The notes below the pieces were generated by a model. That model was not told the DNA's origin. It did no database searches and was given only the letters and a program-made list of their open reading frames with translations. A DNA stretch of 59,518 nt, the filler included, from Pirum gemmata (taxonomy: Eukaryota), in assembly GCA_002812295.1 (NCBI GenBank). It is 10 parts of 10 records of this genome, joined end to end, with 100 filler letters (N's around TTAATTAATTAA, not from the genome) between each part and the next. Parts side by side here need not be neighbours in the genome. Positions count along the whole stretch, not along the records: positions 24,627 to 30,958 come from PDIN01000529.1; 9 more parts are not named here. One strand, written 5' to 3'. Both the position numbers and the translations under genes were made by a program. Of this stretch, positions 2,520 to 31,818 are shown in pieces. Position 1 is the first letter of the stretch, and every line of letters begins with the position of its first letter.

Positions 2520-4300
2520 TTTTTATTTTTTTTTTTTTTTTTCTTTTCTTGTGTTTTTTTTTTTTCTTTTTTGTTTTTTTTTTTTTATCTAAATATGGTA
2601 ATTAGTAAACTTCTTCGAATCAACGATTAGAGGTAAAATTAATAATTTCTAAATAAAGAAAATGTTATTATTATTATTATTATTTAGATTATTTATAGCA
2701 GCGTCACTAAGGAAGGAGCCTTAGTGTTGAGTAGTTGTTGAGCTTGAGCTCTGAAGTAGTTGTTGAGCTTGAGCTCTGAAGAGACTCTGAAGTCTGAACT
2801 TGATTGAGCATGGTGTATGACGTGACCCTAAAATATGAAGGGAATATCAAAGAAAATGTGTGTTTACTGTGTTTACAATGAAAATCACATTACACTCTCA
2901 ACCATCTCAACTGATAAATCACCTATATAATAATAATTATTATACTTATACGTAGGTGGTTAAGGTGTGTCGAGTGGAACATCATCATGAGCCAGGGAGT
3001 ACCAGGGTGTAGGTAGGACTGTGTAGGCTACAAGTCGGTGTGAAATGCATATAAATTTAATATATTATATTAGATTGTAATATATGGCTGGGTATCAGGG
3101 CGGATACTTGCTGGTACCGACAGAAAAAATGTCAAATAATAATAATAATTATAATATTTTTCTATTTTTTCTTGAGGTTCGAGTCGAACTAAATTAAAAA
3201 GAACCAAACCTAATTAAACAGCTAGTTCAAAATGTTCGAGCCAGCAATAGTTTTTGGTCAATTTTTTTCCTTTTTTTTTAACTCCCACTTGTGTAATCAG
3301 TTAGTATCGATAATCAGTTCTTATCAACACTAGTCGCACTATTATTTTAAAAAATGTTTTAAGTTTTGGTTTAAAAATCACTATTTTACTTATTACACAT
3401 GTACACATTGAGTTTTTATATTAAAAACTCGACATGTCTTCACTATCACTATTTTACTTATTACACACATTGAGTTTTTATATTAAAAACTCGACATGTC
3501 TTCACTATCGTGCAAAGTTTGATAGCACGAAAAACGGTCTTATTAATAAGGAATATTTGTTTTGAAAACAATAGTACCCGCCCATAGTTCCGCCCGTAGG
3601 TTCATATAATATATAATATTATATTATAGAATGAATTAATCGCTATTTTAATAAACTTTTTTTCATTATCAGAAAAATATATCTATTAACAATTTACAAG
3701 TTGCTATTATTAATATATTAAAATAATTTTAAAATAAACTCTAGCTAGAAATAAACTACTAGGAGTCTACTACTAGGGATAAAGTCTATGAAACTTTCGG
3801 GTATCATAACTTTGTGGTACCCATGGCCAGGTGCCGGGTATCCGCCCATGGGTTCATACATTATTGAATAAATTAATCGCTAAACATTGATTATGTGAAA
3901 AGATAATCAAGTAATTTTTATATATGCCATTTTCCCTAGCTAAGGGACCTTTCATCTAGGACCTTTCATAGTCCTTTTATATACTTTTTAAACTATATTG
4001 TTATGGTTTTTTGCGATTTATTAAGAATTAGTTTTTTTTTTATACAAGTAATATCGTAAATATATACAAAACTAATTTTAATTCAATTGAAAATGTTTTT
4101 AACAACAATCGTTTAACTAATTATATATTAACACTATTACACAAATTTTCATTATTCTAAAAAGATTTTTTTTTTTTGGTTCACATAAGGTTTGGGCTAT
4201 TATTATCATTTTTCGTTTTATATAATATAATGTATATAATTTAATAATATATCAGTAAGAGTAGTCGTGATCCTATGCTAGCATCAATATAATATTGCAA

Positions 4301-7076: not shown

Positions 7077-7158
7077 ATTAATATTATTATTGTCATTATT
7101 ATTATTATTATTATTATTTATCCATTTATTTTGTTATCAATGTCCATAATGTATTTAG

Positions 7159-8204
7159 GTATGTTTGAAGACCTAGGCTTAGATGATAACAACTTATTGC
7201 TAGATAAAAAGTCAAAATGTTCAGGTTATGCTTATGAAATGCGAAACGGTAAATTATTCGTAAAGCCAAAAGAAAAAGAGTACATAAAAAATCACTGTAA
7301 TACAATTGATTTAAGTAATAATAACATAGTTGATTTTGATCAGGATTGCTTTAAAGATTTAAACCAATTAAACCACATTAACATATCTAATAACAAGGTA
7401 AAAGAACTTAGTTTTCAAGGTTTTGGTAATCTTTTTTTTGACAAAGGTAGAAATATGATAAGTATTAACTTAAATAACAATCATATTGGTAATATCAAGA
7501 GCAATACTTTTTCTTTAGGGAATTTTAAAAAAATAGAGAAGTTACTTTTAGGCAGTAATTTAATTGATAAAATGGAACCCACGTTATTTAGTGGTTTTGT
7601 TCTAAGCTCAATGACAGTCAACATATCTAATAATAATATTGATTGTTGTAGTAATACAGAGGGGTTACATTATCTAATACAAAATAACCAAACAATTGAC
7701 TGTTTATTAGGGGGCAGTAGCACAAGTACTACTTATTCTTCGCATCAGAATATTGATTTAAATAATGATTGTTTAAGTGCAGGGCTTAATCACTCGCCAT
7801 CCCCAAAAAACAATGTTGGTGTGATTGTTGGTTGTGTTATAGGTATACTTGTATTAATTGCAATTGCTTTGGTTGTAGGTTTTCTTATCTACAGACGTAA
7901 AAAAATTGATTTACTTGAAGGAAAAACTGCAAAAGAGTTTGTGTTAAATAGTAATGCGGATATGATGGAATCATCAGCTGAGTATACAGTTTACGATGGT
8001 GAATCAGCACTCGCTTGTGATAAGAAAACTGAAACTGGTGAGGCGAATTTGAATATTTATGAAGAAGAAGATTCTAATTATCATGTTGCAAATGAAGATG
8101 TCGATAATATATTAGAAGGTTCTAATTATGAGAATACGAATATTTTTGAAGAAGAAGATTCTAATTATCACGTTGTAAATGAAGATCTCGAAAATGAGAT
8201 CTAA
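7159..8204 (+). CDS. Leucine-rich-repeat single-pass membrane receptor-like protein (3' exon; 5' part probably off contig)
   Basis: LRRs (IDLSNNNI, INISNNKV, INLNNNHI, LLLGSNLI, VNISNNNI), a TM helix VGVIVGCVIGILVLIAIALVVGFLIY followed by RRKK, and an acidic Tyr-rich tail. Likely acceptor tttag at 7154-7158. Confidence 0.8.
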
Positions 8205-9118
8205 AACTGATCAGTATTTTCATTTTATTAATTTTTTCGATTTTTCTTTTCTTGCCAATGTAACCTTAACCCACCCACCCTATCTCTGTCTAAAGTTGTC
8301 GGCCTAAACTGGACAGGGGCTGGGTATGAGCCAAAATCCTCAGCTCAGGCCCAAAATACCCCACCTGACTATGTACACACAGCCGCATACTCCAAAAACG
8401 ATTTCAACACAGTAAGTAAGGGTAACAACATAAATCATAATCTTACAACTAAAAAAACACATAATCAGATATAATTATCAAACTATTACTATTACCATTC
8501 TTTGGTTTATCTAACCAACAGTTGTTTTTCCAACACATACTTATTATATAAAAAATTACCAAACACCGAATTTTGACAAAAAAAGTTTCCTCTTCTTTTT
8601 CTTTTATTCTTTTTACACTCTCCTGCACTATACCCTGCTCTTCCACTCACACTTCTCTGAACATTCTCGTTGCACTATTCTCACTGCCCATGCGTTTGAA
8701 AAAATCAGAAAATTTTATGAAAATACAGACTAGTTTTTCTACAGTTAACTTCACCAGTTTCGTTGCTTTGAAAAACGTGCCATTAGTTAAAGGTATATAT
8801 CACGTTGGAAATGAAGATCTCGATAAGTAGATCTAAAACTGATCAGTATTTTCATTTTATTAATTTTTTTGATTTTTCTTTTCTTGCCAATGTAACCTTA
8901 ACCCACCTACCCTATCTTTGTCTAAAGTTGACGCCCTAAACTGGACAGGAGCTAAGTATGAGCCAAAATCCTCAGCTCAGGCCCAAAATACCCCACCTGA
9001 CTATGTTCACACATCCACATACTCCAAAAACGATTTCAACAAAGTAAATAAGGGTGGGTACGTTGGGTGAGGAAAAAACAACATAAATCATAATCATACA
9101 ACTAAAAAACCACACATA
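8166..9118 (+). repeat. ~300-bp direct repeat pair (8166-8463 and 8798-9118)
   Basis: Two highly similar copies that include the last codons and 3' flank of the LRR gene. Copy 2 has a ~23-bp insertion. Confidence 0.9.
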
Positions 9119-9850
9119 AAAGTCGTATAAACATCATTATTTTTACCGATAATCTTTGGTGGCGTCTGTTACTTTTTTGGGTTCATAAATATCTTCATGT
9201 TAAATTCCTATACTAATAAATAAAACGGTAATACTTTCACCAATTCTGGTATTTTATCTGAAAATTATCAACAGGAAATTCTTTTTTATGCATTTGTTGG
9301 GTAAACGTTTTAGGTGCTTCATCAGTGAACGTTGCTTCAAAGGGGATTATTCTAAGACGATGATAAGTGGCTTTATCACAGGACATTTTGGGTACAGAAT
9401 TACAAATCATGACTAATTTAAACATGGTTTTTATTTCTATAGGATCCCCAAATAAAGGTCAACGAACTTATCATTACCCGTTAATTGTTTCAATAATTCA
9501 GTGTTGAAATAACCATCGTTCTCTGTTAGCTCCTTTAAAACCAACAAATCCTTGCTGTACCTATTGTAGCCGATTCGGGGGTAGCAGGTGAACTAGCAGT
9601 GCCTGGTGGTAAATCAATACTATATGTTCCTAACATTTGTTCAAATAACGAATTCAAGACACCTTTACCATTAACACCAATACCAGTGAAAATGTGTACT
9701 TTTTAATGTTTGTTACCTAAAAATACTTGATAATAATAATCCAAAAAGTACTTTTTAATTTCTTTATCGGGAAATAATTGTGTGAAAATAAGGTCTAGAC
9801 TTTGTATTGACTATCATTCTTACTCTGAGTAGTATAATCCATTGGTGCTT
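9117..9850 (-). pseudogene. Decayed D5-like SF3 helicase (viral primase-helicase); endogenous viral element
   Basis: Minus-strand frames give LFPDKEIKKYF, Walker A FTGIGVNGKG, LFEQMLGTY, LLKQLTGND, MFKLVMICNSVP..DKATYHRLRIIPFEATF, EPKKVTDATKDYR and NNDVY. Several stops and frameshifts. Confidence 0.88.
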
Positions 9851-10203
9851 TACAAACACATTGTTTTATTGTTTTATTGTTTTATTGTTTTATTGTTTTA
9901 TTGTTTTATTGTTTTATAATATTGTTTTATTAATATTGTTTTATTGTTTTATTGTTTTGTTTTAATATTTTATTGTTTTATTATAATAATATTGTTTTAT
10001 TGTTTTATTGTTCTATTATTAATATATTGTTTTATTGTTTTATTGTTTTATTGTTTTATTGCTGATTGCTTATAATATTATCTATTGCTTATAATTACTT
10101 TGGTTATTGATTGACCGTTATTTAATTTATTTTTAGCTTGTCCTCAATTTCCAGTCCCTCACATCAAATTCTGTATGAAGGCTATGTATACCTACCTACT
10201 AAC

Positions 10204-13785: not shown

Positions 13786-16700
13786 TTAAGTTCGAATAAT
13801 CAATCGGTTAGACGGATACCGTTTTCTAAAGTAACCACCGACTGGTCCTTCTACGACTGCAAATTGCCAACCTGCCGACAAAGCAATAAATACAAAACTA
13901 ACAATCCAAATAGTAATTCTTAATTCAAAACTCATTGGTGGTGATGGTGATCCACCAGCATCCTGGTAAGCTCTCCAAACACCTGAAGCATTAGGTCCAT
14001 TAAAAGGGAAAGAGGCTATATGCCATAAATTAGTAAAATCATTTGAAGGCAGTAAAATAACCAAAGACGTCAAAATAAGCAAAGCAATAACGTTAATAAC
14101 AAGCGGCCAATTTTTATAAACCGACTCCCTGAACTTGTACCCAAAACTGTAAATCCCCGCTTGACTAACTAAGTTCAGATACATAGAAATGAAGAGAACG
14201 GTGCATTCCCAGTTATCACCAAGCACCCACCAGTTTTGTCCTTGGGCTAAGTTCGCTGGCCAAGGAACATAATCCTTATGAGTAACGGTGATGATTAAAC
14301 ATGTAATTAAACCCAAGAAAGTTAACAAGTAAGTACCTACGCTTGATGCTAAATTGATTTTGCCCAACAAACTCGAGGTAGGACGTTTAGTTTTTAAAGA
14401 ACTGGAGGTACCACTTAGCGTCATGGTATATCCCAAAGAGATCACCGCAACAGCATCAATAAAAAGATAATTCATTTGGCACATAATTACTCCATAGTAA
14501 AATGAAATCAGTTTGACGATCGTAAATATTTGACCATAGTAGATTAAGAACTTGTAGACGGAAAAAGAAGTATGAAGTGAAGCACGTCCTTCTTTAAGCA
14601 AATCAACAACCGAACGAATGGATTTTGATTTGGAAGTAAATGGTGATACAATAGAAGCTTCGGCGTCACTAAGCGCTAAACCAGCTTGAGCAGCTCGAAG
14701 AGCACCACAATCGTTTCCTCCATCACCACACATACCAACAATCAAACCTAATTTACGGAACAAGTGAATACCTAAAACTTTACTTTCTGGAGACATTCTT
14801 GCGAAAATTCTCATATTCAATAAAAGGTGAGGCATGTGGTTGCTATTAATGATTTCATGCAATGTATCATTTCCAGTTAAACCTAATTCCATTTCGTTAT
14901 CTTCTTTGACCATATCGATAACTTGTTCAGTAGTGTAGTACGTCTTGTTTTCTGTGATTGCCATATAAGACCAATGAACAGTTTTGGTCTTTTTGTCAAA
15001 TTCAGCAAGTAAAATTTCAGCACCTTGGTTAACTAAAGAGCACGAATGACTAATGTATTGACCACATTGGGCATTATCACCAGTAATCATAACTGGCCGA
15101 ACAGCACCGGCTCTTAGTTCTTCAATGGCAGCCTTGGAATCCTATTTATCGGTTATAAATGAAGAAAAATTGAATTAGTAAAAAACAACAAAGACAAACA
15201 AACAAAAAACACAACAAAAATTACACGCGCGATGTAAAAAATAAAACTAAAAAAAAATTAATATTATATATATATTACCTCTTTTGGTTCGTTACGCAAT
15301 ATCATTAAACCAAGCATTTCAAAAGCACCTTGCTCTTCTACTTCACTGCGTTTTAAATCACCATAATGATCCATACAACCTCTGTGGGCCAAAGCCAATA
15401 CATAAGCACCATCCAAAGCATACTGTTTAGCGACATCATCATAATCTACTGGGATACTCTCTGGTTTACATAAAGCCTTTACCTTTTCAAACGAACCTTT
15501 AACAAACACGTTGTTATTTTTTTCGGTGTCTTTCACAATAACAGACATAGTTTGCAATTCATGATCAAATTCAAATTTTTTCAAAATTTCTAATGCTTCC
15601 CCTGTAGGCGACGTCACATGACTAACACCTTGATTATCAGTTTCACCTAAAGTCCAACCAACAGCCTCAAACATTTTCGTTTCTACTTCGTTACCAACCA
15701 CTTCATTTTCGCCATACTTGGTTAAAGCGTGACAAGTCGCTAAACTATTAGTTATGATTTGAGGAGTTTCTTCAGACTGTGCATTTTTAATTAATGGACC
15801 AAATTGAGAACCATTCACAGGAACAACACCGCCAAAATCCATACCATCCTATAAAGTCATGATAAAAATCGTTAATAAGTAATTATAAATAAATAATAAA
15901 AGGTTATAAATAAATAAAATAATAAATAATGATAATGATAATGAAGTATAATGATAAAAATAAAAAATAAAAAATAAGAAATAAAATAATAATAATAATA
16001 ATAATAATAAGTAAATAATAATGATATAAGTAAGAAAAATAAAAAATACCTTGGTAATAGTACCCGTTTTGTCAAAGCAAAAAACTCGAATTTTACCAGA
16101 AATTGCAATTCTTCCTGGATTAACACAAAATACATCTTTTTCGGTTAAACGTGCACAACTACGAATTTGACCTACTTTCAAAGCAACTGGTAGTAGAGGT
16201 GACATGACTTGACTAATTGTGAAAATAACGTAGGCCCACATTGTAACCCAGTCGGAGTTAGAACCAGAGTTAAACATAAAAGCAATAGCTATACAAGAAG
16301 CACAAATAGCATAAATACCCAAAATAACAAATACTACTTTTAATTCTTCTTCGTATCGGAAAGCAGTTTTTTCTGGAAATAAAATTTGAGAAATCAATTC
16401 CCCTTTAGAAGTGTTGATGCCAGTTGCAGTAACCAAGGCCATGGTTAGTGATCCGTTTACATTTTCAGTCTGTAAAACTTTTGTACCCGCAAATAAAGAA
16501 TGCTTAACTCCAGCCTTTTTGGGATCGTAAGATTTAGAATCATCATTTGGGCAAGATACTTTCTGAATGGGTTTGGATTCACCAGTTAGTGAACTTTCGT
16601 CACACAAAGCGTTACCTGATATTAATACCATGTCGCAAGGCACACCACATTTTTCGTCAACCGCAACCACATCACCAGGAACAAGTTTCAAAGACGAAAT

Positions 16701-17960
16701 GGTAACTAACTGCCCATCACGTAATACACGAACTTCAGATTGATGTTTTGTTAATTGAGCAATAGTATGCTCGTTTTTGTAAATAATATAAACATTAATA
16801 AGCGCACTAAGAATAACGACCGTTAATTCGATCATAGCGATGAATAAATAACTAAACCAAATCCATACACTGTACATAATAAACTGGTAGTAGTAAAAAA
16901 AAGTACTAAACTCTTCTTGTATTAAACCATAAACAGGTGTAGGTGTGAACGGTATAGCATTAGGACCGAATTCATGGTAACGATTTTCAGCTTGAACAGA
17001 ACTCAACCCAGATCCACAGCTAAGAATAGCAGCGTAATTAGAACCAACAATATTAAATTTAGGAGAAACGAATAAATCACTATCTGGGTCATACAAATAA
17101 CGAGTACCTTCGTGGATAAAAAATTTGACGCCATCTTCATTTGTACTTACTTTCACAGTACAATCGTGTCCATTTAAGAGTTCAGGGGGCGTTAAATAAT
17201 CTTGAATTTTATGTACCAGGTTAACCAACCGGTTGGAATTGCTATCCAAAACTTCAAATGTATCCAAAACCCATACGTACATGTAATCCGCTTGACCCAT
17301 GGAGCAAGGTAATCTAAACCAATTCCTGATTCTATTAAGATTGACTAAACAGAAAAAGAACCATACTCCAGATAATGCCCAAACAGTAAACATGTAATAA
17401 GAATTATTCGTATAATTACCAAATACTAAATAATTCCCGTAAAAGCAAAGGTTATCGATTCCTTTGAGCTGGCAATCAAAATATTTGCCAAACTGGATAA
17501 CGATGAATAAAATCACAAATCCCAGAGAAATCAAATTGAACAGAATAAAACACATGGTACCAAAAATGTTACTTTGGTAGGGTTTTAATTTGATATTAAC
17601 CGTCGATAAATCAGAATTGCTTATTTCATCATCACTACCGTCAAGTTCACAACTACTTTGAATTTTTCCAGAATTAGAATTCTTCTTTTCATCACTACCT
17701 GTACCAAAAGATTCAGTACCCATTTCTTTTGTTTTTATTTCACTGTCGGATTTCATTCCATTGGCACTCTCTAAAATATCATTTTCAACTTTGTTTTCGA
17801 TGTGTAACTCTCTTTCTTTATGTTTCTTTGAGCGTAATAACCTCACAAAGAAAAATGAAATACAAAGTGCAAAAATACTACCCCAGATTGCATACAACGC
17901 AATTAAACCTATATTTAATATAAGAGCAATAAAAAATTTAATAAACAAATGTAAGACCAT
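13786..17960 (-). CDS. P5-type (ATP13A/YPK9-like) P-type ATPase, 3 exons: 17960-16050, 15848-15279, 15141-13786 (~1278 aa; true start uncertain)
   Basis: Motifs LVPGDVV, PCD, DESSLTGES, DKTGTITK|DGMDF (joined across GT-AG intron 16049-15849), FEFDHELQTMSV, VKGSFE, NEPKE|DSKAAI (intron 15278-15142), MITGDN, FARMSP, MCGDGGNDCGALRAA, EASIVSPFTS and LLKEGRA. Confidence 0.93.
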
Positions 17961-18041
17961 TATTCAATAATATATAATTATACATAATACATATATTATA
18001 ATATTATATACATTATATTAAAAACAGATAATAATAATTTT

Positions 18042-22880: not shown

Positions 22881-23233
22881 TTGTGCTTTTCATTTATTTT
22901 CTCACTCTGAATATTTATTTGGAGGGTTATAATATTTAAATTGGCATTTTTAAATAAATAAATAGATAATAAAATATACCAAATTAATTAAAATGGGCTT
23001 ATATAGTATTGATTTGGTACTCTTTATTATACCCTAACCCTAACCCTAACCCTAACCCTAACCCTAACCCTAACCCTAACCCTAACCCTAACCCTAACCC
23101 TNCTAACCCTAACCCTAACCCTAACCCTAACCCTAACCCTAACCCTAACCCTAACCCTAACCCTAACCCTAACCCTAACCCTAACCCTAACAAAACAACT
23201 GAAAAGCACGTGAACTGAAAAGCACGTGCACGA
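22881..23233. mobile_element. TA-flanked MITE (TCGTGCTTTTCA TIR family) interrupted by a (CCCTAA)n array at 23031-23190
   Basis: Both flanks of the array match the family consensus in the correct order and orientation. Confidence 0.8.
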
Positions 23234-23629
23234 TATGATTTATAATATAATGTAATAATATAACATTACTATCGTCTATTTTATTACAGTTTGTCTTCTC
23301 AATCTTTAATTTGGCACTGTTTAAGTTTGTTTAAGTGTATTATTAATATTAAATTTTAAAAACTTGTTTATAAAATACAAAATTTTAAGTATAGAATACC
23401 AAATTAATTAAAACATGGCTGTCAGTAAATTTAATTAAAACCATAAAAACAATTTGATAAGTTTATTTCAGTTTTTGAACTGGAGAACAATATTGAAAAA
23501 CACGATTTCATATTTGGAGTATTGATGTATTTCAGTGGATGTTTTCAAGAAAAGATAATATAACTACAGCTAGCTAATACTACATAGCACATTATATTAA
23601 TATTTTTGATATCATATAGACAATAAAAA

Positions 23630-24285
23630 TAATGAACTGAACAATATATTAGAGAATTTATTGTAATGGTTACAATTCTTAATTGTGATATATATGATAT
23701 GTTATAACATAAGCATACAATGATCTGGAATAAAAAGCTGAACAATACATATATAAATATTAATATATATGGAGCCAGATTTTGGTTTATATAATCTGAA
23801 CAATAAAAGTAATGATCTGGACATTAAAAAGAATGATCTGGACACTTCTATTAGAGAATTTAATGTATTATAATGGTTACAATTCTTAAAATAATTATGA
23901 TATGTAACATAAACATACAGTGATCTGGAATAATAGGCTGGACAATGAAAATTGTTATCTGAATAATAAAAATAATGATCTGGACAATAAAAAAAATGAT
24001 CTGGACAATAAAAATAATGATCTGGACAATAAATAAATTATTTATATATTTTTTAAAGAATTTTTAAAAAACGTAATGGCTACAATTCTTATGTGATCTG
24101 AACAATAAAAATAATGATCTGAACAATAAAAATAATAATCTGGACAATAAAAATAATGATCTGGACAATAATTTTTAACGTAATTCTTATCCTAAGAATA
24201 CAATGATCTGAACAATAAAAATAATGATCTGAACAATAAAAATAATGATCTGGACAATAAAAATAATGATCTGGACAATAAATAC
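23630..24285 (+). repeat. ~21-bp satellite (AATAAAAATAATGATCTGG/AAC)n with higher-order structure
   Basis: More than 15 copies, punctuated by recurring AATGGTTACAATTCTT blocks. Confidence 0.88.
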
Positions 24286-24626
24286 ATGTTTATATATATA
24301 TCTAGCTTTCTAATTGGGTGCAAGGAGACTCACAGAAGTAATTCCATAATTTACTATTAGCTAGTACCAAATTAATTCAATATAGATACATTTAATTTAA
24401 TTCGGTATATTTTATTATCTATATATTTATTTAAAAATGTCAGTTTAAATATTATAACCCTCCAAATAAATACTCGGAACCCAAATTCTAATCGTGGAAA
24501 GATCCTGGTCACAAAGAAACGATTTCNNNNNNNNNNNNNNNNNNNNNNNNNNNNNNNNNNNNNNNNNNNNTTAATTAATTAANNNNNNNNNNNNNNNNNN
24601 NNNNNNNNNNNNNNNNNNNNNNNNNN

Positions 24627-25282
24627 TTTTTAGGTTTTTTAATGATTTGTAAGGATTTAAAATCAAATGTCATGTTATAGAATTTTAATTTTTTTTCATT
24701 GACCAAGTCAAAAACATCTCTTTGTAATGATTTTATATGATCTATAATATCAACTTTAGAAGTTGGTTTATCTTGAAAGAAATTAGATAAAAATTGAGTC
24801 TTATCCATGTTCATTTTTTCTAAACATTCTTGACGCTTATCGATATATAATTGCAAACTGTTTATTTCTTTTGAATCTAAATTATTATATTTACAAAGAC
24901 ATAAAAAAATAGAAGGGATGCAATTAACAAGATCAAATTCTACCGAATCAGGAGGTATTAAACTATTTCGTACCTCTCTTGGCATTAACTGAACTGAATC
25001 TGCTGAAGAAGAGGTATAGCACCTGCCTTTGTTTTTATCATGGAAATAGTTAACTTTAAGATTATATTCATTCAATATTGCTTTTTTTATTAAAACAGGC
25101 CAATTTTTAATACTAGTATAAGGGTTATCTTCTTCTAATATCTCAATCGCCTCTTTTTTAGGTCTAACTTGAATGATTAATTCACGCCATTGTTCAACAG
25201 TTAAATTGTACAACAAATTAGTATGATCTGGATCATACCGTTCAGTAAGAGTTAAGTACGGAGCTTGTTGTTTTTTTGACAT
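24627..25282 (-). CDS. TVpol-like (family-A-related transposon/virus primase-polymerase) N-terminal part, truncated by contig end
   Basis: KGRCY..SVQLMPREVRNSL..EFDLVNCIPSIFLCLC..LQLYIDKRQECL follows the GRxY / SxQxMxRxxRxxL / DxDxxNxHPxI / LxxYxxxR pattern of TVpol domains. Intronless. Confidence 0.72.
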
Positions 25283-25359
25283 TTTGTTTTGTTTATTTAA
25301 TTAAATATAATGTTTTTTTTTTTTTTTTTTTTTTTTTTCAAAAAACGATGAAATATTTG

Positions 25360-25489
25360 TTTTATTACAATAACATTATTTCTTTAAGTTAACATTTTTT
25401 TTTTTTAAGCCATACCAAATATGGTCATTTTCCTTTAACATTAAAAAAAAAAAATCTTAATTTAAAGAAATAATGTTATTGTAATAAAA
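25360..25489. promoter_or_regulatory. Perfect 28-bp inverted repeat in the divergent TVpol/HTH intergenic region
   Basis: TTTTATTACAATAACATTATTTCTTTAA (25360-25387) and its exact reverse complement (25462-25489). The right arm ends 3 bp before the HTH ATG. Confidence 0.75.
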
Positions 25490-25492
25490 AAA

Positions 25493-25786
25493 ATGTCTGT
25501 AGTTATCAAACAAGAGCTAGCGCAAGTACTACTTGCCAATCAGCATCTAAACAATGCTGAATTAAGTAAAAAAACAGGAATTACTATACCTACTTTGAGA
25601 AGGTATAAAAAAATGTTAAATATAAAATCAGCAAAACAAGGACGACCTAGAGATGACATAACGAAATACAACAAATATCTCTTGAACCCAAAACACATGG
25701 GGAAAACACCTGAAGTTTTGAGTAAAGAGATAGGAATCAGCGCGAGTACTATTTATAATTATAGGAAATTAAATGGACTAAATTAA
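25493..25786 (+). CDS. Small DNA-binding protein with two HTH motifs linked by GRPR
   Basis: NNAELSKKTGITIPTLRRY - QGRPR - TPEVLSKEIGISASTIYNY. A-rich ATG context. Confidence 0.8.
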   Translation: MSVVIKQELAQVLLANQHLNNAELSKKTGITIPTLRRYKKMLNIKSAKQGRPRDDITKYNKYLLNPKHMGKTPEVLSKEIGISASTIYNYRKLNGLN

Positions 25787-25968
25787 ATGTATAATAAATA
25801 TTTTTCATTAAATTTTTTTCTATTATTTTTGTTAATGCTTTTTTTCAACTTTTTGATCATACTAACATCTACCCCTAATTCCTCAGCACATTCCTTATCA
25901 CTAACAAATACGTTATCAAGAGAATATTTGGTAAGGTTGATGATGTTTTTTTTTTGATTTTCAGACAT
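25783..25968 (-). CDS. Small HTH protein
   Basis: SDKECAEELGVDVSMIKK HTH-like motif and a basic tail. The stop overlaps the convergent ORF stop (shared TTAA), and the ATG is 13 bp after the recombinase stop. Confidence 0.62.
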   Translation of the reverse strand: MSENQKKNIINLTKYSLDNVFVSDKECAEELGVDVSMIKKLKKSINKNNRKKFNEKYLLYI

Positions 25969-25981
25969 CTTTTTTTTTTAT

Positions 25982-27352
25982 TTATTTATTCAAATATAAT
26001 TTATTTTTTTTTATTATATTTTCATTGTAGTAATAGCGATACTCAACCAGAAGGCGGTGGCCTCTTTGGTTGTTTGCAATCTCAGTTTGCTGAAAAACGC
26101 TTCTTTTATCACCATATAAAAAAAAGTCATAATTGATCATAATTTTCCGCATTTGGGATAGCCTTGTTATTACTTTTTCAAAACCTAGTATCTTCATGAG
26201 CATGTAAAAGTGATTATAATTTAATTCGTTAGGGTTGATATCAATAATAAAATCCATATTGTATTTAAGTACTAAATTACTATATTGTGAAGTTTTTAAT
26301 ATATTATTAAATTTTAAAGTATTCTTATCAACAATAACACAGTTTTGATAGTCCTCTATATACCTCATAATGCTATGACTTTTTTGTTTAAAACATATTA
26401 TGCCAAGAAACAGGACAAAAGGATCCTTTATTTTAGGTATATTTTTTTCAAATCGATCTATTAATTCACCACCTGAAGGACAAGGTTCGTATAATGGTTC
26501 TAGATCTTTTACAGGTACGATTAAAGTTGATAAATCAGTATTACAATCTGCACAATTCTGGTACATAACAACGTCATCATTATCTAATACATTAAAAAAG
26601 TTCAGCAGTATTAAAACTGTGGAAACACCCCTTGCTACAACCCCAAAATGTTCGTCTTTTGTTTGTTTTTTTATTGTATCATAATGACTTTTTAATCCTT
26701 GTTTAAATTGATATTTATAAAAATCATATACAAGCATTTTACTGTTGACCTTGTTATACGGGAAACAAGTATAAAATTTTTGTAAAATCTCAAAACACTT
26801 TCGTATTTTGGTTAGCCGAGACGAAAACCCGTTATTTTTGTCTTTTATATTTGAGTAATTTTTTTCAATTAGATCTAAAAATGCCTGCTTTATAGATATT
26901 TTTTTTTGATAAAGTTTTTCCAAATTTTCCTTGATAGCATTATCATCTCTAGCAAAGATTTTAATTTTCATGCTATTATTGTTATTTAATAATTGATTTG
27001 AATATTTGTTAATTACTTTTTCTTCGGTAGTATCTATGATATTATTATACAGTGTATATATTGTGCTATCATTATTATTATTATCATTATTATTATTTGT
27101 ATCAAGATTATTATCATTATTATCATTATTTGTATCAAGATTATCATTATTATTATTTGTATCAAGATTATTATTATTATTATCATTATTTGTATCAGAT
27201 TTATCAATAGCATCAATACTCACCCTATATTTGTTTTTATTCATTTTATTAACAAATTCATATTGAAGTTGAATATATTTTTTTTGGTCTTCTTTCGACA
27301 GAAACTTGAAATCTGTTTGTGATATATTGAAAACATTATTTACATAAATCAT
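25982..27352 (-). CDS. Divergent tyrosine recombinase/integrase (virophage/PLV-type)
   Basis: Catalytic order R330 (MRYIEDY), K353 (FNNILKT), R402 (SQMRK), H432 (RGH) and Y441 (H+9). Asn/Asp-rich N-terminal linker; intronless, 456 aa. Confidence 0.7.
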   Translation of the reverse strand: MIYVNNVFNISQTDFKFLSKEDQKKYIQLQYEFVNKMNKNKYRVSIDAIDKSDTNNDNNNNNLDTNNNNDNLDTNNDNNDNNLDTNNNNDNNNNDSTIYTLYNNIIDTTEEKVINKYSNQLLNNNNSMKIKIFARDDNAIKENLEKLYQKKISIKQAFLDLIEKNYSNIKDKNNGFSSRLTKIRKCFEILQKFYTCFPYNKVNSKMLVYDFYKYQFKQGLKSHYDTIKKQTKDEHFGVVARGVSTVLILLNFFNVLDNDDVVMYQNCADCNTDLSTLIVPVKDLEPLYEPCPSGGELIDRFEKNIPKIKDPFVLFLGIICFKQKSHSIMRYIEDYQNCVIVDKNTLKFNNILKTSQYSNLVLKYNMDFIIDINPNELNYNHFYMLMKILGFEKVITRLSQMRKIMINYDFFLYGDKRSVFQQTEIANNQRGHRLLVEYRYYYNENIIKKNKLYLNK

Positions 27353-27407
27353 TTTTTATTATTTATTATTTAAATATATTTTTATTTTTAAAATTAAAAA
27401 AAAAAAT

Positions 27408-27944
27408 TTACATTTTTCTGCAAACAATAGATTCAATTAATAAATCTAAATTTTTTTTATATTCATCACCAACATCACATTCCATATCAATTAACTCAAA
27501 TTTAAGTTTATGTAATAAATCTAACTGATAAATATTATGATCACTCCTTGTTTTTTTAGCTTTATCATCGCCCTTAGGAATTTTTTTCGAATAATTTAAT
27601 TGATTTTGTGCTTTTTTGATATCATTAAGACCCATCTCATAATATTGTTTAAATTCCAAATCAATTAGTTGTTTTTGTACTCCTTGCTTTAAGATAGTTT
27701 CAAACTCTTTATGTAATTGATCCAGCTTCCATTTAGATATTGTTCTATACCTCTTGTACAGTTCTCTTATTTTAATAAACAAGACGTGTAGTAACTCTTT
27801 AGGCAGGTTACTTTTTCCTCGTTTATCAGGGTGGTAGTATAGAATATTATTTCGATGGTTGATAGCATTTATTTTATCTGAATAATCAGGGTCATAATAA
27901 TAAAACCGGTGACCAAGTACTTCTATATAGATGTCGTCAGACAT
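27408..27944 (-). CDS. J-domain (DnaJ-like) protein
   Basis: YIEVLG..INHRNNILYYHPDK..LFIKIRELY matches J-domain helices I-III with an intact HPD motif. Confidence 0.68.
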   Translation of the reverse strand: MSDDIYIEVLGHRFYYYDPDYSDKINAINHRNNILYYHPDKRGKSNLPKELLHVLFIKIRELYKRYRTISKWKLDQLHKEFETILKQGVQKQLIDLEFKQYYEMGLNDIKKAQNQLNYSKKIPKGDDKAKKTRSDHNIYQLDLLHKLKFELIDMECDVGDEYKKNLDLLIESIVCRKM

Positions 27945-28424
27945 GATTTATTTTAAAATTTATATGTATTATATATTGTATTATATTGAAAAAAAAATAT
28001 ATATTAATTTTCACCAAAAACAAAAAAATATACCCTATTTATATAAAAAAAAATATAATTACTCTTGATAATAAATTTTTGATAAAAATTTTTTAATTTT
28101 TCGTTTTTTTTTTTCGCTAGGCTCCCAAAAAAAACGTCATTTTATGTAACCATCTGAATCCCTAAAAATGAATGTAAAAGTTTATAAATGACAATCTGAG
28201 ACTTTAATTTCAAAAGTCTAATTATTATTATTTGTAAATATAAAGCTTAAAAAATATTATGCCATTCAAACCTTTTTAGTAATAAATTGAAACTATTAGA
28301 TAAGAAATTTAAATATATAAAAGTGACTTTTTTAATAAAAGGCATCAAAATTATAATAATTTTGGTAGACTATTTATCAAAAAAAAAAAAAATAGTTCTC
28401 GAATTTTTTTTTTTTAGTCTATGA

Positions 28425-28720
28425 TATTGTAATAACTTTTATCAAAAATGAAGTATTGAAAAAATATATGAACCCCCCCATTATTTTTTATAATTAAAAA
28501 AAATACATTTTATTCATGTTAATCTGGTGGTAGCACAATTTATGTTCACAAATGAACATAATGAGTTTAAAAAAAATGCACAATTTATGTTTAAAATTGA
28601 ACCGTGATTGTGCTACAACCAGAAAAATATGACTAAAATGTATTTTTTTTTAATTATAAAAATAATGGGGGGGTTCTTATTTTCAATACTTCATTTTGAT
28701 AAATAATATTATATTACATG
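28425..28720. repeat. Long imperfect inverted repeat (~120-bp arms); partial third copy at ~28895-28978
   Basis: ATCAAAAATGAAGTATTGAAAA..GAACCCCCCCATTATTTTT..CTGGTGGTAGCACAAT is mirrored by ATTGTGCTACAACCAG..AATAATGGGGGGGTTC..TTTCAATACTTCATTTTGAT. Confidence 0.88.
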
Positions 28721-29084
28721 ATGTTTGAAAAAAAAAAAATTATAGTCATAATTACGTCATAATCACGTCATATTTTCTATACCTTCGCACTTGCTTTGTA
28801 CTCGCTTTCTATGCGAAACTGTTAGGGTTAGGGTTAGGGTATCAAAGTATCACCAATCAGTTGAATCAGTTGAAAAGTAAAAAAAAAATAGTCTATTATT
28901 TTTTATAATTAAAAAAAAATACATTTTATTCATGTTAATCTGGTGGTAGCACAATTTATGTTCACAAATGAACAATAACTTACGTCATAATGACGTCATT
29001 AGAAACCAATTATTATTATTATAATTAGCTAATTAGAAACCAATTATTATTATTATAATTAGCTAATTATAATAATAATAATGT

Positions 29085-29328
29085 TTTGTTTTTATGTGTG
29101 TGTGACATTTTTTTTTTTTGTGACATTTTTTTGTCACACTGTGTTTTTTTTTTTCATCATTTATAAAAGGTGGTTTGAAAATTTGTGACATTTGTGACAT
29201 TTTTGATTTTTTTTTGTCACACTGTTTTTTCGTTTTTTCATCATTTTTATAGGGTGTTTTGATTTTTTGTGACATTTTTTGATTTTTTTCCGGATTATTG
29301 TGAAAAAATTTTTTCGAGCTATTGTGAA

Positions 29329-29362
<34 letters not shown>

Positions 29363-29605
29363 TAAAATATATATTTTACATTTTTTTTGGATTTTTTGGA
29401 TTTTTGTCACAAAAATCCAAAACCCCCCTATAAAAATGAATAAAACACAAAAAAACCGTGTGACAAAAAAAATCAAAAATGTCACAAATGTCACAAAAAT
29501 CCAAACCACCCTATTAAAATGAATAAAAACAAAAAAACCGTGTGACAAAAAAAAATCAAAAATGTCACAAACGAAAAAAAAAATGTCACAAACAAAAAAA
29601 ACAGT
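29085..29605. repeat. Large palindrome (~190-bp arms) with 14 TGT(G/C)ACA motifs around an AT-rich centre
   Basis: Seven motifs per arm in mirror order, with an (AAT)n/AT-only core at ~29330-29378. Confidence 0.88.
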
Positions 29606-30506
29606 TTTACTCACTTTTACTCATTTGATTCAGTTGATTCCGGGGGATAAGATCGACTTTTATAAATATGAGATTGCCTTTTTAGAGCTTCAGATGAATA
29701 ATAGTCTATAATCATAATTTATTGGCTTTAAAATTCAAAATTTTGTTACACCGTTTTTGTCTAATGCATACAGCCATCCAGCCATTGGCTGAAAATCCAT
29801 AAGCCATACAATTGGTATTCAGCCATTGGCTTAAAATCCATAAGCCATACCATTGTATTTTTTTAGTCTAGCGAACAGGCTATAGACTATATACATTATT
29901 ATACAACGTCATAATTACGTCATATTTGCTATACCTTCACACTTGCTTTGTACGCGTTTAAATGGGGGTCTAAAGTACCTTGAACATAGATTAACAATCA
30001 GTAACATACATACATCAGTAACATCTTTCATTGCTTTCACCCTTAAAACAAGGTAAGGTTTAGGGTTACAGACAACATCAGTAACATCTTCATTGCTTTC
30101 ATTGCTTTCATTGCTTTTACCCTTAAAACAAGGTTAAAGGTTAGGGTTACAGACAACATCTTCATTGCTTTTGTCACTAGTCTAGAGCTTTTCTATGCCG
30201 AAGTGGTGCAAAATTACCCTTAAAACAAGGCTATTATAACTCGTTTCAGTGACCGTTTTATACACATAGTAGTTTTTGGTCTGCCAATTTAAAACAATAA
30301 AACAATATTTTGTCACAAATAATAAAAAATGAATAAAAAATTGATTCATAAAAAGACGACTATATAAACAGAGTAATCGTGTACATCGATCACAAAATGT
30401 GAAAAAATTTCTAAGTATTTTTTTTACCAATTTTGTTTAATCCTTAACCATATTTTGAGGCACTTTTTACCAAATTTGCTAAAAATGTCGAGCGGCCAGG
30501 GGACAN

Positions 30507-30833
30507 CTGTTACTGGGTCTTCACCGTAAGTGCGAACAATCCATTGTTTTCTTGTTCTTTGGATAATAGTATATAAACCCCAATATTTCCCGTTTTCAGT
30601 GACGGCAGCATAATTGATACTTCGAGGAATGTAACCAAGAGCATTGGATAAGTCCATAGCTACTTTATCGCGTAATAATGTGGTATCAAACATACTTTTC
30701 TTTACAGAGAATCTACGTATATATTTGTACAAAAAATAAATTTATTAACAAAAAAAAAAATGGTAAATCAATTAGTATGTTATAATTAATTAAATAGTAT
30801 TAAATAATAATAATAATGATAATAATAATAATG

Positions 30834-30866
<33 letters not shown>

Positions 30867-30940
30867 GAATAGACAATAATAATAATAAACAAACCTATCC
30901 CATTCATCAAAGAAATCAGGATTATCCACAAACTCTCCTG
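30507..30940 (-). CDS. cotH: CotH-family protein kinase, internal exons (~30940-30895 and 30712-30507)
   Basis: DFFDEWD|RFSVKKSMFDTTLLRDKVAMDLSNALGYIPRSINYAAVTENGKYWGLYTII matches the CotH D.x.LR..LA..L...G.....YA.V..NG.Y.GLY pattern. GT-AG intron in frame. Confidence 0.78.
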
Positions 30941-31818
30941 CTTTAAAATAATAATTTTNNNNNNNNNNNNNNNNNNNNNNNNNNNNNNNNNNNNNNNNNN
31001 NNTTAATTAATTAANNNNNNNNNNNNNNNNNNNNNNNNNNNNNNNNNNNNNNNNNNNNATATTATTACTATCATTTATCATATAAATTTTGTTTGTTTTA
31101 TTTCTTTTTTTTAATTTTTTAAAAAATAATAATATTATGAATCTATGATAGTTCTTTCTCCTTGAGTTCTTTCTTTCTTTCTTTCTTTTTTTGTTTCTTT
31201 TTTTATCATTAATTATTTTAAAAAAAATTGATATTTTTTGGATTTTTGAGCTCATATGGACCATATCGTGGATGTAGCTTTTTATCTGGCTTGATAAAAT
31301 GACTATAAAATGTATCGAATTTTGTTTAGCGAACTTTGTCTATATTTATACTATATATATATAATTTTTGACTGAGGCTAGTTTAATTAAAATAATATTG
31401 CTATTTCATAGCTTATTTCATATTTCTGTCTGTAATATAATATTATATATTAAAATTTATTAATTTAGGCTCTTTAGACCTAGTTCTTAACTTCTTACTG
31501 TCCCCTATTCCAAGAAACTGTGATTGTGCTTCGTTACTTTTGCAGTTCTTTTCCAGACTTGTTTTCGTTTTTGCGGTTGTTTTTTGTTTTCTTCGTTTTT
31601 AGGTTTTTAGTCACTACTAGTATCATAATGTTAAAAATTATTTACCAGGTTTTTAAAAATTTATTTTAAATTTTGTTCTATTTTGTTTTTATAATATATG
31701 GACTAACTTAGTACTAAGTCCATAGCTTGAGGTTATTTCTAAAGTATTATTAGATGTAGACTAATTGATCTATGATATTCTAGACCTATATCTGATAATT
31801 TTTATCCCTAGCGAGATA

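Follow-up and report, generated by a model that had tools for sequence, protein, structure and literature searches.

Polinton-like viruses (PLVs) and virophages have genomes of ~14–40 kb (PMC10120064). Such genomes have defined ends, often terminal inverted repeats, and encode a double jelly-roll major capsid protein, a minor capsid protein and an A32 packaging ATPase. Across 1055 polisuvirus genomes, PolA/TVpol and tyrosine recombinase genes are strongly associated (10.64898/2026.10.13.758929), and in one cryptophyte cluster this pair predominates (PMC12220804). In integrated PLVs, recombinase genes lie near the element ends (PMC4642659). The virophage Sputnik unites a TVpol, an integrase and a helix-turn-helix (HTH) gene (PMC2579912), and a figure legend counts DnaJ as one of the domains abundant in marine PLV clades (10.64898/2026.05.28.728513). 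Here we describe a cassette of five open reading frames (ORFs) with adjoining palindromes from the ichthyosporean Pirum gemmata (assembly GCA_002812295.1). It lies within a window—the whole stretch of DNA that was analysed—of 59,518 nucleotides, made up of ten scaffolds of 5.4–7.0 kb each, joined by artificial N-linkers. We think the cassette is probably one end of an integrated PLV (Polisuviricotina), with the helicase domain and the capsid module expected further left, past the contig end, and that the locus is most likely a new, divergent member of the PLVs, known as common passengers of protist genomes. An initial, sequence-only reading of this DNA put the combination of genes forward as a candidate undescribed element; since TVpol with a tyrosine recombinase, DnaJ in PLVs, and the Sputnik trio are all on record, that claim is weak. 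No paper describing this element itself was found in the literature searched, mostly non-subscription, the supplements of two preprints aside.

The scaffold in question occupies positions 24627–30958 (6.3 kb) and has a single internal N at 30506. Its left boundary, 24627, is a contig end and falls inside ORF1, so whatever seems absent to the left of this point reflects the limit of the assembly. The coding features are:

24627–25282, minus strand: ORF1, 218 codons, open at the contig end
25493–25786, plus strand: ORF2, 97 aa, two HTH motifs
25783–25968, minus strand: ORF3, 61 aa, probable single HTH protein
25982–27352, minus strand: ORF4, 456 aa, probable divergent tyrosine recombinase
Within ORF4, residues K324 or R330, K353, S399-x-x-R402, H432 and Y440: candidate catalytic residues, from motif order
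27408–27944, minus strand: ORF5, 178 aa, probable N-terminal J-domain (HPD motif) and helical tail

ORF4 is thus upstream of ORF1, on the same strand. The sequence-only reading had reported five intact, intronless, tightly packed ORFs. Their places, their spacing (gaps of 13 and 55 bp, with the stops of ORF2 and ORF3 overlapping) and the ATG-TC start context of four of them are as it described, but 'intact' does not fit ORF1, which is open at the contig end; the other four are complete, and free of stops and frameshifts. The GC content of the cassette, 0.24–0.32, is below that of host exons, 0.29–0.38. When the ORF block was shuffled 500 times with dinucleotide composition preserved, the longest ORF averaged 60 aa and never exceeded 141 aa; ORFs of at least 97 aa, the size of ORF2, arose in 13 shuffles, and of at least 61 aa, the size of ORF3, in 215. 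ORF1, ORF4 and ORF5 are longer than chance would produce, and ORF2 comes close; ORF3, judged just by its length, is within the reach of chance.

ORF1 is the N-terminal 218 aa of a TVpol, a PolA-like primase-polymerase: homologues, a confident structural model and fold matches agree. An exhaustive homologue search found 63 proteins at E≤1e-3. The nearest are helicase fusions of ~700–900 aa, and in 34 of the 36 long homologues scanned the matched region is followed by DUF5906 or D5_N. We take DUF5906 to be a helicase of the superfamily 3 (SF3) type; a Walker A motif is visible in the sequence. ORF1 is predicted to run on, past the contig end, into an SF3/D5-type helicase; a TVpol-helicase fusion of that length is the form usually seen in viruses (PMC2579912). 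In an alignment of 61 sequences (P0003 and P0028, whose matches are repeat-driven, and P0002 were omitted), D117, the first catalytic Asp of motif A, is invariant, and G86, R87, Q98, N120, P123, Y146, R150 and K161 are nearly so. R87, the beta-hairpin Arg ahead of the palm, sits on a strand in the AlphaFold2 model, and R87 and D117 correspond to the hairpin Arg and first palm Asp described for TVpols (PMC2579912). Of the fingers motif, RxxxK, K161 is kept; the Arg four residues earlier is missing from ORF1 and from many close homologues. The second catalytic Asp, motif C, lies 125–171 aa past the first in 36 homologues, and is outside our view because ORF1 ends, with the contig, 101 aa after D117.

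The model of ORF1 has a pLDDT (predicted local distance difference test) of 87.7. Foldseek comparison with BFVD gave 11 matches at E≤1e-3, among them the replicases of Zamilon and Qinghai Lake virophages; the match to the Zamilon replication protein has E 2e-4, a TM score of 0.54 and 15% identity. Against the PDB, Foldseek gave nothing at E≤1e-3, and sequence search gave chance matches only; the whole-length PDB matches of VIA-align (183–203 residues) are all polymerases of the PolA/T7 type, with middling Z scores of 3.9–4.6 and root-mean-square deviations of 4.7–7.8. Homologues, motifs and fold together bear out the TVpol of the sequence-only reading. A word-based homologue search with ORF1, among longer proteins only, yielded no homologue, and ORF1, P0004 and P0026, run directly against viral contigs, found no relative. 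In a tree of 158 domains, ORF1 sits on a long branch with the environmental proteins P0022 and P0024 as its sole supported neighbours (support 0.95, distance 2.2), so it is not assignable to any one group of PLVs or virophages. The closest database protein, P0002, is an automated two-intron gene model labelled Pirum gemmata. We reject both of its GT-AG introns, since the second deletes the conserved N120 and P123 and terminates the protein, and the unspliced frame aligns straight through. Nor is P0002 a second copy; it is the same locus.

What accompanies such replicases elsewhere argues for a virus. Queried with groups of ORF1 homologues, sequence collections supplied 164 loci, some of them duplicates. 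Of the 72 that are at least 10 kb long, 60 carry a virion gene, from a capsid, protease or packaging ATPase family, and an OLV11-like recombinase is present in 40; among the unselected metagenome contigs in this long set, virion genes occur in eight of 11. Pfam upheld the A32 labels and those of virophage capsids, both major and minor, and gave weak backing to a single PLV capsid; other labels were assigned by inspection. In the commonest layout, that of 24 of 41 loci, the recombinase gene lies upstream of TVpol with both on one strand, within 2 kb in 16 of the 41; the cassette has this layout too. Kinship with PLVs or virophages, as first proposed, stands as the best reading. The PLV reading draws further support from the host, because PMC10120064 (Tables S1 and S4) lists 10 major capsid genes of PLV type, in two 'new' clusters, for Pirum gemmata; by column count of Table S4 we read these clusters as MMPC 5 and 13. 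Such elements are reported to break up in short-read assemblies (PMC10120064). As an observation apart, one viral contig, L133, has two identical recombinase genes in opposite orientation (3163–4239 and 8778–9854), possibly within an inverted repeat.

ORF4 is, we think with fair assurance, a very divergent tyrosine recombinase; that it is active as one we rate lower. Its candidate catalytic residues follow the expected order, with the first Arg ambiguous (K324 or R330) and spacings, measured at Lys 353, of 29, 23 and 49, the last being K-to-R. By eye, the C-terminal half resembles the OLV11-like recombinases found near related TVpols: KT, S-x-x-R, G-H, and Tyr at +8. Ser is the commonest residue at the His position of HxxR in OLV11-like proteins (18 of 40). 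The spaced pattern R, K, HxxR, H/W, Y, designed after viewing ORF4, occurs in ORF4, in 14 of 39 OLV11-like proteins and in one of 30 canonical recombinases, and in none of 20000 shuffles and none of 698 other ORFs. The ESM Atlas language-model search returned look-alikes at 0.92–0.93, including a Preplasmiviricota cluster, with low counts of shared features; five of 30 matches belong to clusters that include PF00589, which in one such cluster is annotated on 15% of the members. Near its N-terminus, ORF4 carries an in-frame Asn-rich repeat, an AAT-type expansion.

Motif order and the language model thus point towards the recombinase of the sequence-only reading; the profiles do not. When ORF4 was compared by hhalign with 40 OLV11-like proteins, 75 of 100 shuffles scored equally high; with segment profiles, 1784 of 2000 and 176 of 2000 did. 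ORF4 has no family match in Pfam, PHROGs or NCBIfam. Word-based homologue search gave one chance match for the whole protein and none for residues 195–456; PDB sequences gave chance matches only, as did phages when searched by tblastn with ORF4 and ORF5. The ORF4 model was built from a single sequence, since aligning it with known recombinases would have forced the fold; AlphaFold2 then gave residues 280–456 a pLDDT of 33.6, too low for a meaningful fold search.

The sequence-only reading also named two HTH genes and a J-domain gene. ORF2 is a double HTH protein by its sequence: MerR, HTH_24, HTH_26, HTH_3 and HTH_23 of Pfam match it above cut-off, at E 1e-7 to 8e-6, over residues 12–40 and 68–93. 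It is likely to be a regulator, or a protein that binds an origin or terminus. ORF3, with weak matches only—NUMOD-like at E 0.013, phage regulators at E 0.01–0.03, and a sigma-factor C-terminus at E 0.004—and a start in the same A-rich ATG-TC context as other cassette genes, is a probable single HTH protein. ORF5 is a probable J-domain protein: it has the HPD motif with J-domain-like flanks, and residues 34–64 score 7.0 bits against a profile of 83 J-domains, a value reached by one of 2000 shuffles for a hypothesis picked after the motif had been noticed. This score is below Pfam detection, and ORF5 has no match in Pfam, NCBIfam or the PDB. A motif scan for J-domain genes in the 164 related loci found none.

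Beyond the ORFs, and between two of them, the DNA is rich in symmetry:

25355–25494, unstranded: mirror-image region with a 54-nt inverted repeat between the ORF1 and ORF2 starts, putative divergent promoter
28402–28741, unstranded: imperfect palindrome 1, 340 bp, arms 75% alike, folding z −14.9
28754–28807, plus strand: direct repeat of 54 nt in which ACGTCAT motifs are paired; its other copy, 91% identical, is at 29906–29959
29043–29082, unstranded: perfect 40-bp A+T-rich palindrome
29087–29603, unstranded: imperfect palindrome 2, 517 bp, arms 74% alike, folding z −15.2

The nested inverted and direct repeats reported after the ORFs are real: both large palindromes are self-centred, none of 100 shuffles is as stable as either, and further direct and tandem repeats continue to 29960. 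One arm of palindrome 1 is partly duplicated at 28895–28974, and the copies of the 54-nt direct repeat flank palindrome 2 on both sides. Two details are newly noticed. The putative mirror-image promoter between the TVpol and HTH genes, absent from the sequence-only reading, has arms 94% complementary and a folding z of −7.4, with none of 200 shuffles equally stable. Palindrome 2 contains 14 copies of the heptamer TGTCACA, in both orientations about an AAT centre; another is at 30311, and there are none on the other nine scaffolds. Palindrome 2 is a candidate origin, terminus or attachment region. As a control, inverted repeat pairs were sought on the other nine scaffolds, and five have them, one scoring higher (249 versus 214 bits); these are dispersed copies of host repeats, none of them self-centred. 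An Rfam scan of the scaffold found no match. A protelomerase or Flp-like role for ORF4, suggested by the palindromes, was set aside: there is no family match, and the large palindromes are imperfect.

To the right, the cassette gives way to DNA whose bearing on integration needs care:

29606–30505, unstranded: repeat-rich tail with a weak host-like signature
30507–30732, minus strand: host cotH kinase exon (PF08757, E 9e-10), cut at the N at 30506, outside the element

The neighbouring cotH gene is confirmed, but as the evidence for integration that it was taken to be, it fails: the join at 30506 is a one-N scaffold join that cuts an exon, the reading frame loses its likeness to cotH there, and the join is hence no proof of integration. 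The left contig ends just past a possible plus-strand start codon at 30485, facing in the opposite direction to the cotH exon. (This codon, with a few codons after it before the contig end at 30505, shares the A-rich ATG-TC context of the cassette genes, and could begin a further element gene or a host gene.) Better evidence, though weak, is the passage, uninterrupted by N, from the ORFs into host-like DNA. In that DNA are three TTAGGG units of telomere type, and a nonamer of which three other scaffolds together have four copies. Right of ~28750, motifs common to other scaffolds appear, at levels equalled by 2–5 of 100 shuffles in three of 13 regions, uncorrected. In 29606–30505, the shares of 11-mers in common with other scaffolds are 0.053 and 0.071, compared with ~0.025 in shuffles (three and two of 100 as high).

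These same features bear on another explanation, which we consider rather improbable: that the cassette belongs to a free or episomal virus, perhaps from a co-cultured organism, that was assembled alone and wrongly scaffolded to a host cotH fragment. The cut exon and the opposite-facing start codon at the join would be expected of such an accident. In the number of 11-mers that it has in common with other scaffolds, the ORF block does not exceed its shuffles, and its four complete ORFs lack stops and frameshifts. Continuity of the contig into the DNA with the TTAGGG triplet and host nonamer speaks for integration instead, weakly and without correction, and the AAT-type expansion of ORF4 resembles those common in host scaffolds. 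In the related Amoebidium, adintoviruses and recombinase-rich repeats are reported (PMC11244446). For P. gemmata, the ViralRecall results given in that paper include no reliable giant-virus insert.

Several observations weigh against an integrated PLV. The 6.3-kb scaffold shows neither a capsid, ATPase, protease or helicase gene nor a second end; the absence of capsid genes is uninformative, because the coding DNA amounts to 3.3 kb and the contig is cut inside the replicase. ORF2–ORF5 have no significant relative among the 3096 ORFs of the 164 loci. Distant homologues were the route to these loci, and a viral-contig collection, a source that favours virion genes, supplied 84 of the 164. The TVpol-helicase relatives of the P0004 group (L003–L014, L083) adjoin genes that look, by inspection, like those of ribonucleotide reductase, not PLV virion genes, which suggests that they belong to viruses of a different kind or have inserted into the DNA of giant viruses. 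In ORF4, the K-to-R spacing of 49 compares with 62–83 in 39 OLV11-like proteins, and where ORF4 may have Lys, all 40 OLV11-like proteins have Arg. A canonical recombinase profile gave ORF4 no score, and 29 of 39 OLV11-like controls exceeded the 99th percentile of shuffles; a mixed profile aligned residues 365–443 in the expected register, with a score equalled by 172 of 2000 shuffles. Finally, the arms of the large palindromes are overall just 74–75% alike, unlike typical terminal repeats.

Some of these anomalies could be read as signs of age. The locus would then be an old viral insertion, decaying or partly domesticated, with ORF4 dead or no recombinase at all, and the palindromes unrelated foldback repeats of the host. 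The possible change of Arg to Lys at the first catalytic position, the short spacing, the want of profile support for ORF4, and the inverted pairs on five of nine other scaffolds, one scoring higher, would all fit. Yet R330 could serve as the catalytic Arg instead, the ORFs are uninterrupted and closely packed, and the repeat expansion in ORF4 stays in frame; the inverted pairs elsewhere are dispersed and not self-centred, and the heptamer is confined to the scaffold of the cassette. We regard decay as quite improbable.

The absence of virion genes in view admits a different construction, of which we are doubtful: a small element without a capsid, be it a replicative transposon, a nuclear plasmid or a virus satellite. 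A TVpol-helicase would copy it, ORF4 would integrate it or resolve its dimers, and the HTH genes with the mirror promoter would form a copy-number switch. Spelled out as a nuclear element, this would comprise the TVpol-helicase, a new, short-loop tyrosine recombinase, a phage-like switch of two HTH proteins on the mirror-image promoter, and a J-domain protein that loads the helicase onto an origin formed by the heptamer array—a combination that we find similarly doubtful. For helicase loading, the J-domain of polyomavirus large T is an analogy. There are precedents of a sort: TVpol with a lambda-type integrase defines capsid-less bacterial mobile elements (PMC2579912), and PolA/AEP replication modules bracketed by repeats may move alone (10.64898/2026.10.13.758929). 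ORF1 is on a long branch, grouped only with P0022 and P0024; the paired HTH genes, J-domain and heptamer array are unmatched in the 164 related loci; and 12 of the 72 long loci bear no virion label. Most long loci with related TVpols do have virion genes, however, and the labelled host species has its 10 listed capsid genes of PLV type (PMC10120064). If the capsid-less construction were true, the locus would be a eukaryotic integrative plasmid built from the replication module of a PLV.

We return, then, to an integrated PLV as the preferred reading, and to how such an element might work. The replicase fold and motifs, the HTH motifs of ORF2, and the palindromes are established; the functions that follow are borrowed from PLV and virophage biology. 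Complete, ORF1 would encode a primase-polymerase-SF3 helicase, and this protein would copy the genome of the element. Recombination by ORF4 would insert a circular form into the host chromosome, through a site close to the recombinase gene and within 27945–29960, as has been argued for PLVs with respect to such a site (PMC4642659). The HTH proteins might bind the mirror promoter or the heptamer array, to time expression of the replicase or to mark an origin or end. And ORF5, by means of its probable J-domain, could bring in host Hsp70 for assembly of the complex that replicates or recombines the DNA.

Few unicellular organisms are more closely related to animals than the ichthyosporeans. Their PLV-type capsids fall in unnamed clusters, for which the literature searched describes no replication or integration genes, and for one of these clusters the cassette may supply the replication-integration module that is missing. 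ORF4, for its part, may be a recombinase that has diverged past the reach of current profiles. With the cassette, the range of a known class of element comes to include a thinly sampled lineage; the cassette would represent a new kind of system only if the full element proved to be capsid-less.

Other features of the window concern the host. A dispersed repeat of ~120–185 bp, which looks like a family of short non-autonomous transposons, occurs in several copies in both orientations, 81–92% alike within scaffolds (22906–24478, 40666–41805, and others). At 23716–24280, a tandem 21-nt unit, in more than 12 degenerate copies, lies beside a telomere-type tract (23030–23190). Interstitial TTAGGG tracts are many on the scaffolds that start at 1, 7077, 18970 and 42840, some in introns or at single-N joins. 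A P-type ATPase-like gene (13786–17963, minus strand; P5-like by inspection) has three long exons, which is at odds with a uniformly intron-rich host, and two genes (7150–8204 and 57817–59109) resemble, by inspection, those of leucine-rich-repeat surface proteins.

How does the locus compare with what is known? Bacterial TV-Pol mobile elements with an integrase or resolvase, and transpovirons, likewise couple a replicase to a recombinase with no capsid genes in view; the context of the cassette is eukaryotic, in contrast, and the nearest homologues of ORF1 are helicase fusions. Of the markers of Polintons sensu stricto, protein-primed PolB and a retroviral-type integrase, neither is in view on the scaffold, whose replicase is a TVpol, instead. 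The virophages Sputnik and Zamilon have the same trio of gene types (V13 TVpol-helicase, integrase and HTH gene), and Zamilon provides a fold match; unlike them, the cassette shows no virophage capsid or protease in view, and no giant-virus helper is known for P. gemmata. The endogenous PLV-type elements of ichthyosporeans share the labelled host species and the short scaffolds, and their capsids are in unnamed 'new' clusters. PLVs with a TVpol-SF3 helicase and a tyrosine recombinase—PgVV/Gezel-14T, PLV-YSL1, PLV-RED1, and cluster C1 of Rhodomonas lacustris—have in common with the cassette a TVpol replicase, a recombinase-like gene upstream on the same strand, and compact, intronless, A+T-rich genes from a protist assembly (PMC4642659, PMC12220804). 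The cassette departs from them in that no virion genes are in view and ORF4 is not detectably OLV11-like by profile, and in the company that its recombinase keeps: two HTH genes, a mirror promoter and a J-domain gene surround it.

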